A DNA stretch of 50,140 nt, taken from IMG/VR virus record IMGVR_UViG_2522572023_000006; one strand, 5' to 3'. Shown here in pieces: positions 31,053 through 32,460 of this stretch. Under the pieces are notes generated by a model. That model did no database searches and had not been told where the DNA came from. It saw only the letters and a list, made by a program, of their open reading frames with translations. The DNA is from a virus (lineage: Duplodnaviria > Heunggongvirae > Uroviricota > Caudoviricetes). Within the stretch, counting starts at the first letter, position 1. Each line of letters begins with the position of its first letter. Both the position numbers and the translations under genes were made by a program.

Positions 31053-32111
31053 TCATCCGTTCTGACTGACTAAATCCTGTACTTCCCTGACCGTCTGCTC
31101 AAAACGTTCAGTCTCCAGCTCAACGCCAGTTGCACGACGCCCCAGCGCCATCGCGGCTTTGACTGTCGAACCCGACCCCATGAAGAAATCTGCAACCAGG
31201 TCACCCGGACGACTGCTCGCACTGATTATCTGCTGCAGCATTTCTGCCGGTTTTTCGCACGGATGTTTCCCGGGATAGTACTGCACCGGTTTATGCGTCC
31301 ACACATCCGTGTACGGCACCTGCGCCGTCACGCCAAAATACCGCCGCAGATGCTTATATTCACTCTGCAGTTCCGCATACTGCCGGTTCAGTGAAGTATA
31401 CGTCTCCAGCAGCTGGTGGTGGGGCTTTTCCAGTTCACCGCGCTGATGCTTCTCTTCTGCCACCCGGGCAAACAGCGCCTGTAATTTCAGATAATCGCTT
31501 TCGTTCGGTAGCTGCCACTGACTGGCACTAAACCAGTGCGACACCATGTTTTTCTTTCCTGTGGCATCCACTATCTGTTTTGCCGTTATCCCCAGGGCAG
31601 CACGCGCATCACGAAAGTAAGAAATCAGCGGAGCCATCACATGCTGTTTCAGTGCCCTGCCCTTCGCCTCATACCCGGCATCTTTCGGACGATACGGCCC
31701 CTGATAATGTTCCGCGAACAGAATGCGCTCTGTGGCGGGGAAATACGCCCTCAGGCTTTCCTTGTTGCACCCGTTCCAGCGTCCGGACGGCTTCGCCCAG
31801 ATAATATGGTTCAGCACACTGAAGCGTTCACGCATCATGATTTCAATGTCAGATGCCAGGCGATGGCCACAGAACAGGTAAAGACTTCCGGCAGGTTTCA
31901 GCACCCGCCAGAACTGCGCCAGACACTGGTCCAGCCATTTCAGGTAATCCTCATCACCCGTCCACTGGTTATCCCAGCCCTCAGGCTTCACTTTAAAGTA
32001 CGGCGGGTCCGTGACTATCAGGTCAACAGAATTTTCGGGTAACGACCGGATAAATTCCAGGCAGTCGGCGTTGATTAACTCACAACTGGATATTTTTACA
32101 GTATTAAACAT
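31053..32111 (-). CDS. Orphan DNA methyltransferase (N6-adenine/N4-cytosine type, beta class)
   Basis: 352 aa; catalytic DPPY motif near the N-terminus and AdoMet-binding FxGSGS motif (DFFMGSGST) near the C-terminus; no adjacent restriction endonuclease gene. Confidence 0.8.
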   Translation of the reverse strand: MFNTVKISSCELINADCLEFIRSLPENSVDLIVTDPPYFKVKPEGWDNQWTGDEDYLKWLDQCLAQFWRVLKPAGSLYLFCGHRLASDIEIMMRERFSVLNHIIWAKPSGRWNGCNKESLRAYFPATERILFAEHYQGPYRPKDAGYEAKGRALKQHVMAPLISYFRDARAALGITAKQIVDATGKKNMVSHWFSASQWQLPNESDYLKLQALFARVAEEKHQRGELEKPHHQLLETYTSLNRQYAELQSEYKHLRRYFGVTAQVPYTDVWTHKPVQYYPGKHPCEKPAEMLQQIISASSRPGDLVADFFMGSGSTVKAAMALGRRATGVELETERFEQTVREVQDLVSQNG

Positions 32112-32262
32112 GGATCATTAAGCCTGTCTCTGATAGGCTCATACCGCTTTTGCGCAAAGCAGATGGGCCTGAGGTTTGCTTGTGACCCCAACGCATGAGC
32201 AGATGGCTGGTGAGTGCCCCTAACCCCCACCAGCCGCCCATTTACCACAAATAAAAAAGCCT

Positions 32263-32460
32263 TCAGGACTGAAGGCGTCTGTAACAACCAAACTGATAGT
32301 CTGCCAGACCCGCCATAACAAGCTGGGTCAGTATTAGCTGGCAGCGTTCGCGTGAAAGGTACGTATTCTGTGCAATCTCCCCGACTGTCGCCGGTTCGGT
32401 GGCACTTAATTCATTAAAAACTGCTCTGGCGGTTTCTGTCATATCCCGCTGTTTCAGCAT
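32263..32460 (-). CDS. Hypothetical small protein, first ORF of the late transcript
   Basis: 65-aa product from MLKQRDMTETARAVFNEL; the longer ORF-track start would overlap the terminator hairpin, so an internal start is preferred. Confidence 0.35.
   Translation of the reverse strand: MLKQRDMTETARAVFNELSATEPATVGEIAQNTYLSRERCQLILTQLVMAGLADYQFGCYRRLQS

Follow-up and report, generated by a model that had tools for sequence, protein, structure and literature searches.

M.EcoGII, a 349-residue beta-class DNA methyltransferase from a prophage of E. coli O104:H4 strain C227-11, methylates adenine in any sequence context in both double- and single-stranded DNA, and acts on RNA more weakly. The enzyme is not expressed in the lysogen, and it is toxic, slowing growth when expressed. 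M.EcoGI differs from M.EcoGII at 16 positions, two methylases of that strain, M.EcoGII among them, are reported to be completely non-specific, and an enzyme of phage 1720a-02 is called very similar to M.EcoGII. M.EcoGII was described by Murray et al. (2018, NAR 46:840; PMC5778455). M.EcoGI has also been described separately as non-specific. Here, we describe a methylase gene of this family in a 50,140-nucleotide virus sequence (IMG/VR record IMGVR_UViG_2522572023_000006), the whole of which is referred to as the window. The chromosomes of E. coli O145:H28 strains RM13516 and RM12761 are 100% identical to the window. With a probability of roughly 0.7, the gene is an orphan of the M.EcoGII family that stands as the first enzyme gene of a Q-dependent late operon, is locked off in the lysogen, and serves in anti-restriction after induction. 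The central features are as follows.

32673-33362, minus strand: late-gene antiterminator Q of the phage-82 type (PF06323, 2.8e-83; phrog_304, 9.3e-104; PGAP annotation).
32661-32689, minus strand: candidate late promoter pR', with a -35 element TTGCAA (32684-32689), a 17-nt spacer, and a -10 element TATGTT (32661-32666), read by eye.
32584-32654, minus strand: short leader RNA from pR', closed by an intrinsic terminator that resembles tR' (stem 32590-32602 with a T-run; terminator scan).
32485-32522, minus strand: conserved promoter-like motif 5' of the small open reading frame, CTTGCTG-N12-AGAGTTATTGGTGTGTCAC (alignment of 152 loci).
32263-32460, minus strand: small open reading frame (ORF) for a 65-residue stand-alone winged-helix protein (phrog_331, 'unknown function', 9.6e-37; 'TrmB family transcriptional regulator' in PGAP).
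32250-32276, minus strand: second terminator-like hairpin, GCCTTCAG-TCCT-GAAGGC followed by TTTTTT (hairpin at 32259-32276; terminator scan).
32112-32250, minus strand: conserved structured RNA leader of the methylase gene (alignments, covariance model, and covariation).
31053-32111, minus strand: M.EcoGI/GII-family N6-adenine DNA methyltransferase, 352 residues, intact (PF01555, homology, and PADLOC MTase_II at 5.6e-163).

The methylase matches the Pfam family PF01555 (N6_N4_Mtase) at 6.7e-44 (150.9 bits against a cut-off of 26.7) over residues 29-340. The DPPY motif occupies residues 35-38 (DNA 31998-32009) and the F-M-G-S-G motif residues 310-314 (DNA 31170-31184), and both are invariant across 20 homologues. 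Because motif IV (DPPY) lies ahead of the S-adenosylmethionine (SAM) motif I (FMGSG), the motif order is that of the beta class. The Pfam match and the motif order thus bear out the description of the gene as a beta-class amino-methyltransferase in an earlier note, which was made from the sequence of this DNA alone.

Full-length identity places the enzyme in the M.EcoGI/GII family. Like M.EcoGI and M.EcoGII, it is a beta-class protein in the range of 349-352 residues, prophage-borne, orphan, and silent in the lysogen. It is identical to M.EcoGII at 325 of 349 residues (93%) and differs in 24 substitutions and a C terminus that is three residues longer. The M.EcoGII sequence used in this comparison was machine-read from the PDF supplement of PMC11551740 and probably contains reading errors, such as NHHIW where every homologue has NHIIW. 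Among the cluster representatives, which were searched for a cleaner copy, none is closer to M.EcoGII than 92.6%. The enzyme of phage 1720a-02 is identical to the window methylase at 347 of 352 residues (99%).

The methylase family is conserved across Enterobacterales, with a mean column identity of 83%. Mean identity is 74% for the protein compared with 46% for third codon positions, and the gene is full length at nearly all loci; by this comparison, the methylase is under strong purifying selection across genera. The gene might nonetheless be an inert relic of a cryptic prophage that is never expressed. 'Cryptic prophage' is the term given to the host element of M.EcoGII by Murray et al. (PMC5778455), one neighbouring ead/Ea22-like gene in the window is frameshifted, and the adjacent tRNA looks decayed. 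However, the ORF is intact with all catalytic motifs, selection on it is strong across genera, its dedicated leader is conserved even better, and the gene set of the prophage is full. A relic is therefore extremely unlikely.

By homology, the enzyme is effectively known to be a member of the M.EcoGI/M.EcoGII family that acts on adenine without sequence specificity. The target specificity had been called unknown in the earlier note. That statement is superseded by the 93% identity with M.EcoGII, the 99% identity with the 1720a-02 enzyme, and the listing of such homologues as 'nonspecific'. In an O111 methylome paper, homologues that are 92-94% similar to M.EcoGI/GII carry this label as a prediction from REBASE similarity, not as a measurement. 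A non-specific adenine methylase yields no motif, so that the motif calling formerly proposed as a test, and the absence of a motif formerly proposed as a refutation, are invalid and would mislead.

Most beta-class PF01555 enzymes are site-specific, including RsrI, MboII, CcrM, and PvuII, and several of the 24 residues that differ from M.EcoGII fall in the central target-recognition/linker region. The window methylase could thus be a sequence-specific orphan with a motif yet unfound, shielding the phage against one particular restriction system. However, M.EcoGI and M.EcoGII, which differ at 16 positions, are both described as non-specific, and the identity of the window enzyme to M.EcoGII and to the 1720a-02 enzyme is high. 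It also misses the cut-offs of the YhdJ and CcrM equivalogs (NCBIfam NF008572 and NF050803) by a wide margin, scoring 113.4 versus 292 bits and 72 versus 830 bits, respectively. A sequence-specific enzyme is very unlikely on these grounds. YhdJ and CcrM share the Pfam family and motif order of the window enzyme and are the best NCBIfam and PDB relatives of its catalytic core, but they are site-specific (ATGCAT and GANTC, respectively), their central region differs, and the scores lie far under the equivalog cut-offs.

No restriction endonuclease is present among the 68 annotated features of the window, a 50-kb prophage. PADLOC, applied to the methylase and the neighbours tested, returns only MTase_II for the methylase (5.6e-163), with nothing for the neighbours and no restriction enzyme. 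In 80 related genome loci, which represent one genome per species across Enterobacterales and have 62-99% protein identity, the neighbours are Q or DUF968 genes plus lysis genes. With no cognate endonuclease adjacent or nearby, the locus is not a type II restriction-modification system, and the proposal that the methylase is an orphan holds for the annotated prophage and for the neighbours tested. The DUF968 protein (33731-34780, minus strand) has a weakly HNH-nuclease-like C terminus (HNHc_6, E = 1e-4, below the cut-off). Its gene lies 5' of Q in 39 of the 80 loci and is a nin-region gene, not a restriction partner.

The window holds a complete lambdoid prophage whose insertion site lies between ydfJ and rspB. 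In the PGAP/RefSeq annotation, int, xis, replication, Q, lysis, head, and tail genes are all represented, and the late genes all lie on the minus strand. An earlier picture is corrected on this point: Q, the small ORF, the leader, and the methylase are all encoded on the minus strand. Along this strand, the DUF968 gene is followed by RusA, Q, a terminator-like hairpin, the 65-residue ORF, the second hairpin, a 139-nt spacer, and the methylase. Downstream of the methylase lie a tRNA-like sequence, STnc100/AgvB, a NanS-like esterase, holin, lysozyme, terminase, and the head and tail genes. The flanks are similar across the 80 loci: the upstream neighbour is usually DUF968 or Q and the downstream one holin or lysozyme, in many cases no more than 70-400 nt away.

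Q is 66% identical to the Q protein of phage 82 over 229 residues. The candidate pR' overlaps the last codons of Q and runs just past the Q stop, which would be the expected position of a lambdoid pR'. It matches the consensus at 8 of 12 positions, under the scan threshold of 9/12, and a second -10-like sequence, TATAAAT, is present at 32651-32657. The locus has the anatomy of a lambdoid Q-dependent late operon, in which Q, a candidate promoter with a weak consensus match, a short leader with its terminator, and the genes for lysis and morphogenesis all lie on one strand. The RNA from pR' to the terminator (32584-32663, minus strand) bears a sub-threshold resemblance to IsrK (E = 0.088), AgrB, and a Phe leader, in the E range of 0.09-0.4. 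IsrK follows antQ in Salmonella Gifsy-1, and the pR' leader RNA may be its positional analogue.

A cassette of small ORF, spacer, and methylase occupies the same place after Q in phage 1720a-02 (KF030445), phiP27, and many Stx2a/2c/2d phages. These Shiga toxin (Stx) phages differ from the window in carrying stx2 after the cassette, where the window has a decayed tRNA, STnc100, and AgvB, and their Q types differ. As the cassette lies between Q and stx2 (1720a-02 and Stx2 phages; compare P27), the methylase would be on the Q-dependent late transcript. The Q-dependence of its transcription in the window is likewise suggested by its position and by the presence of stx2 downstream of the same cassette. 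The gene was earlier said to be an early gene of the late transcript, and it is indeed the first enzyme gene after Q/pR'. Its position was also described as right after the Q-dependent leader, with a small ORF in front. The small ORF is real and conserved (phrog_331, 9.6e-37), but two hairpins, the small ORF, and the 139-nt leader intervene between pR' and the methylase.

The silence of the gene in the lysogen can be read from the published single-molecule real-time (SMRT) methylome of RM13516, in which GATC is 98.9% methylated, CTGCAG is not methylated, and 191 sites are unassigned. Since only GATC and the 191 unassigned sites appear in this methylome, the methylase and its genomic paralogues are silent in culture. 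The strain is identical to the window, and the locus thus shows the lack of activity in the uninduced lysogen that characterizes the M.EcoGI/GII family.

Homology to Stx2 phages with other Q types starts at about 32608, and the terminator forms the upstream edge of the common cassette. This suggests that the terminator, small ORF, spacer, and methylase, together with the tRNA, may travel as a module. In Stx2a phages of the 933W/Sp5 type (PA50, PA51, phi191, and others), only codons 316-352 of the methylase, the last 37, are left upstream of the tRNAs and stx2. The remnant looks like a deletion scar, suggesting that the cassette was once present there. As these phages keep only the last 37 codons, the methylase is dispensable.

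This deletion bears on whether the methylation serves the phage life cycle, that is, packaging, replication timing, or the lysis-lysogeny choice of an incoming genome, and not anti-restriction. Precedents exist in P1 Dmt at pac sites and in 933W Dam (EcoSal review; Cooper et al.), and the cassette is kept in many genera whatever their restriction repertoire. However, the 933W/Sp5-type phages are viable and highly inducible with the last 37 codons only, and a context-free enzyme carries no positional information. In addition, about one-third of the related loci vary in cassette make-up, and the gene behaves as an accessory. A life-cycle role is thus quite unlikely.

The methylase gene itself is an ordinary copy of a well-characterized family, and its place and presumed role are already in the literature. 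The leader RNA with its attached terminator appears to be the only new part of the locus. Our literature search, as far as the accessible texts go, found no published account of a small RNA (sRNA) or leader at this position. The available portions of the M.EcoGII paper (PMC5778455) describe neither an upstream RNA element nor a Q/pR' position, and the string 'antitermin' occurs in them 0 times. Rfam 15 gives no match to the sense strand of the leader, at E<=1 for the window or at E<=10 for a consensus-like locus (L022).

The small ORF and the methylase are separated by a spacer of nearly constant length (147-154 nt in 29 loci), whose sequence is better conserved than the gene on either side. 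Over 49 loci, the leader has a mean pairwise identity of 0.81, compared with 0.70 in the methylase coding sequence and 0.46 in third codon positions. With a covariance model (R1), the element is located in 52 of the 80 genome loci, where it spans -144 to -1 relative to the methylase ATG; about 20 of these 52 lack the small ORF. A 21-nt core pattern identifies 120 IMG/VR contigs, and the methylase follows it directly in 116 of the 116 contigs with enough sequence. Judged from these searches, the leader is exclusive to M.EcoGII-family genes. Viral contigs related to the window locus are only 95-100% identical copies and are of no use for covariation. Relatives in Xenorhabdus and Photorhabdus possess a shorter leader that contains only the first hairpin (the P1 part) and lacks UGAUC, and a few loci have no leader.

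Several other assignments of the element were rejected. A potential leader peptide frame beginning with ATG-GGC-GGC-TGG-TGG stops after 7 codons in most sequences and after 34-45 elsewhere, with single-base indels. The frame has no Shine-Dalgarno sequence, and its tandem Trp codons are not conserved. Its length varies among the loci, and the element is therefore non-coding. RfaH ops, boxA/boxB antitermination sites, and riboswitches for SAM or S-adenosylhomocysteine (SAH) were compared by eye, by their consensus sequences; the common letters are variable in divergent members, or key bases differ. Helices proximal to the start codon, GCUCA:UGAGC and AUCAG:CUGAU, are unsupported in divergent sequences on inspection.

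Two mutually exclusive folds of the leader are conserved, and their elements are listed below.

32236-32240/32164-32168 (P0), 32205-32235 (P1), 32194-32203/32175-32184 (P2), and 32146-32161 (P3), minus strand: fold B of the leader (alignment and covariation).
32178-32187/32113-32123, minus strand: alternative helix of fold A (minimum-free-energy fold and RNAalifold).
32113-32117, minus strand: invariant UGAUC, 1 nt before the AUG, a proposed atypical Shine-Dalgarno sequence (37-39 of 39 sequences, alignment columns 141-145).

In fold B, P0 (UGGGC:GCCCA) closes a junction that contains the long hairpin P1 and the hairpin P2, and is followed by P3. Sixteen pairs have changed on both sides, compared with 7.0±1.7 when the columns are shuffled and 5-9 in slid controls. 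Covariation is found in 9 of 12 pairs of P1 and 4 of 10 pairs of P2; one P2 pair is CG in 25 sequences, UA in 6, AU in 4, and UG in 4. The leader thus has a covarying structure at a constant place 5' of one gene family, as a cis-regulatory structured RNA does.

Fold A is the minimum-free-energy fold of most single sequences and the RNAalifold consensus of the closer set. UGGGC pairs here with GCUCA, with 99% of alignment cells paired; its alternative partner in P0, GCCCA, is paired in 98.5%. In addition, GGUCA-CAAGC pairs with GCUU-AC-UGAUC (91.9% paired), and at one of these pairs three sequences have GC in place of AU. The two folds are near-isoenergetic, with a mean difference of -2.3 kcal/mol, and fold A is the stabler in 29 of 39 sequences.

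No GGAG is present upstream of the methylase ATG. Most homologues, when folded to minimum free energy, pair UGAUC with GGUCA (32183-32187 in the window). UGAUC is also complementary to GAUCA, which lies just 5' of the anti-Shine-Dalgarno sequence in the 3' tail of 16S rRNA, and it is in the right register. On the basis of this complementarity and register, we propose that UGAUC may act as the ribosome-binding element of the methylase.

The leader may then be a bistable translational switch, in which fold A hides UGAUC and fold B, with its P0-P1-P2 three-way junction, frees it. We hold this proposal tentatively, at somewhat less than even odds. The balance between the folds could be set by co-transcriptional folding, SAM/SAH, the methylase itself, or the winged-helix protein. 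Both exclusive pairings are kept, UGGGC with GCUCA or with GCCCA, and CACAAGC pairs either with the 5' strand of P2, where covariation is seen, or with the translation-initiation region (92%). The near-equal energies of the folds and the position of the 3' end of the element, at a constant place beside the start codon, also argue for a switch.

Among the helices peculiar to the sequestering fold, however, a single pair covaries, probably from one event, and the switch accordingly rests mostly on conservation and thermodynamics. The leader might instead be a passive structured 5' untranslated region (acting in stability, as an RNase site, or as a translational enhancer), a DNA-level element, or an antisense RNA target or template. 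At two constant C·A/A·C positions of P2, the opposite strand would form G·U pairs, and the Xenorhabdus and Photorhabdus relatives retain the P1 part only, without UGAUC. On the other hand, many G·U pairs are valid on the sense strand only, and a scan finds no promoter-like site on the opposite strand. Assignment of the leader to the sense strand therefore appears good, if not airtight. That the leader is no switch also falls short of an even chance. The proposed switch would behave like translational riboswitches and hok mRNA, in which two exclusive conserved folds exist and one hides the ribosome-binding region of a toxic gene. The leader differs from them in lacking an Rfam match.

The second terminator-like hairpin directly precedes the leader. 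The final residues of the small ORF are encoded in its 5' arm, with the stop codon in the loop. A GC-rich hairpin is present 12-17 nt ahead of AUGGGCG in 81 of 94 unique upstream segments, and it persists where the small ORF is absent. These hairpins have 56 different sequences, indicating that the structure is maintained by compensatory change. At least five T residues occur in the next 8 nt in 38 of the 81.

The small ORF lies directly 5' of the methylase in 55 of the 80 genome loci and 99 of 116 viral contigs, and is thus linked to the methylase but not obligatory. The phrog_331-type family comprises 296 proteins, all from Enterobacterales. The 65-residue protein matches Pfam TrmB/HTH_24 weakly, below the cut-off. 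Its AlphaFold2 model (pLDDT, the predicted local distance difference test score, of 88.7) consists of three helices and two strands in the order H-H-H-beta-beta, forming a winged helix. A structure search of the PDB with this model gives only generic winged helices (IclR, MarR, the dimerization domain of an O-methyltransferase, and SelB), none at E<1e-3. A longer reading of 106 residues (32263-32583, minus strand) starts at an ATG directly after the T-run of tR', lacks a Shine-Dalgarno sequence, and is used in many database entries. The phrog_331 profile has a length of 111; the conserved part corresponds to the 65-residue form, which has a good AAGGGA Shine-Dalgarno sequence.

The motif upstream of the small ORF, CTTGCTG-N12-AGAGTTATCTGTATGTCAC, has a constant N12 spacing in 101 of 103 unique instances from the 152 loci. 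The extended form is CTTGCTG-N12-AGAGTTAT.TGT.TGTCAC, and most homologues contain a dyad-like CAGA-N4-TCTG inside it. Read as a sigma-70 site, the motif has a -35 element TTGCTG, a 17-nt spacer, and a -10 element TATCTG; the match is weak and the promoter putative. Its layout of putative promoter, gene, and terminator-like hairpin makes the small ORF resemble a 'moron'.

Taken together, these features are consistent with three successive locks on the methylase in the lysogen. Transcripts from pR' would end at the tR' terminator. Those that read through, or that start from the small ORF's own promoter, would end at the second hairpin. Any mRNA that still reached the methylase would fold with its ribosome-binding region (UGAUC) hidden by GGUCA-CAAGC. 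Upon induction, Q would make RNA polymerase terminator-resistant, so that both terminators would be passed and the methylase would be made alongside the lysis and morphogenesis/virion proteins. The enzyme would then methylate replicating phage DNA before packaging, as well as host DNA and some RNA. Progeny DNA would consequently resist most type I, II, and III restriction systems that are sensitive to N6-methyladenine (m6A) in the next host. Murray et al. 2018 (PMC5778455) and a 2025 EcoSal review give M.EcoGII an anti-restriction role, and the anti-restriction reading of the earlier note agrees with this published view.

Several points weigh against the proposed anti-restriction methylase under Q control. 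The pR' promoter is only a weak 8/12 match, read by eye. Our literature search found no experiment on this gene or on a family member in its native phage, including methylation after induction. Non-specificity is deduced from 93% identity, and several of the 24 differences fall in the 160-260 region, which holds the target-recognition domain. The sparse covariation of the fold-A helices and the two constant C·A/A·C positions of P2, described above, count here as well. Finally, fully m6A-modified DNA would be a target for methylation-dependent nucleases (Mrr, DpnI-like), and because of this exposure the net benefit would depend on the host.

The main targets of the enzyme may instead be host nucleic acids, either rRNA/mRNA or the chromosome, methylated during lytic growth to reprogramme or shut down the cell. 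M.EcoGII acts in vitro on single-stranded DNA, DNA:RNA hybrids, and RNA (PMC5778455), and over-expression slows host growth. The initial rate, however, is about 100-fold lower on RNA than on DNA (0.12 vs 11.12; supplementary table), and late expression leaves little time for host reprogramming. A different Stx-phage methyltransferase, M.ECPA8_3172P-PNB-2, is reported by Gong and Koudelka (bioRxiv 2023) to methylate 16S rRNA and to increase the output of phage and toxin. It is likewise annotated as an adenine DNA methylase and has a small partner protein. It is nevertheless unrelated to the window enzyme: the protein has 208 residues and no significant similarity (BLASTP E = 0.17), and its genes lie in the early-left region of phage PA8 (2228-3282), close to int. 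We consider host nucleic acids unlikely as the main substrate.

The arrangement proposed here, an anti-restriction methylase under Q control, has parallels in phage Mu Mom, P1 Dmt, and T4 Dam, which are late, host-toxic, lysogen-silent DNA modification functions under multilayer control that widen restriction resistance (review). The layers differ: Mom is controlled by Dam, OxyR, C, and Com, and the window methylase by Q antitermination, terminators, and an RNA leader, as proposed above. Mom makes N6-carbamoylmethyl-adenine, and its protein and chemistry are unrelated to those of the window enzyme.

Other features of the region downstream of the methylase are as follows.

30937-31007, minus strand: tRNA-like sequence with anticodon CAU, ileZ-like (tRNA-Met in PGAP; Rfam tRNA model, 37.3 bits).
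30619-30827, minus strand: STnc100 sRNA gene (Rfam, 175.6 bits, above the gathering threshold).
30557-30618, plus strand: AgvB (anti-GcvB sRNA) gene (Rfam, 92.5 bits, above the gathering threshold).
27258-30409, minus strand: rest of the proximal late operon, with a SASA/NanS-like esterase (28556-30409), holin (28191-28406), and lysozyme (27258-27791; Pfam and PGAP).

The Rfam match of the tRNA-like sequence covers model positions 7-64 only, the 3' acceptor strand is unpaired on inspection, and ARAGORN calls no tRNA at 30937-31007 in the window. The sequence is probably a decayed phage tRNA. STnc100 and AgvB are convergent at a moron site and fill the slot that holds stx in Stx phages; their layout is as in prophages of enterohaemorrhagic E. 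coli (Tree et al. 2014). A PerC-family regulator (25521-25835, minus strand) is sited between the lysis and terminase genes. The prophage also carries the type III secretion system effector NleC (2029-3015, minus strand), the type I toxin HokD (35228-35383, minus strand), and DicB (44366-44554, plus strand), all according to the RefSeq annotation.

Matches to part of the 3-kb region occur in 3,404 of 5,426 complete E. coli genomes, at a median of 2 places per genome and a maximum of 15. The M.EcoGII family is used commercially and is a widely used tool for chromatin footprinting. The first place behind Q/pR' and two terminators would provide a concrete mechanism for its reported silence in the lysogen. 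It is further predicted from this placement that Stx phages and other lambdoid phages, in many cases, package heavily m6A-modified DNA in their virions, which would bear on host range, and so on the spread of stx, as well as on sensitivity to methylation-dependent nucleases. The leader is a candidate new regulatory RNA on the gene of a toxic enzyme, and with its own upstream terminator it may form a portable 'safe cassette' for a promiscuous enzyme of this kind. Should it prove to be a switch, the leader would stand among the rare examples in enterobacteria of a phage anti-restriction function that is controlled at the RNA level.

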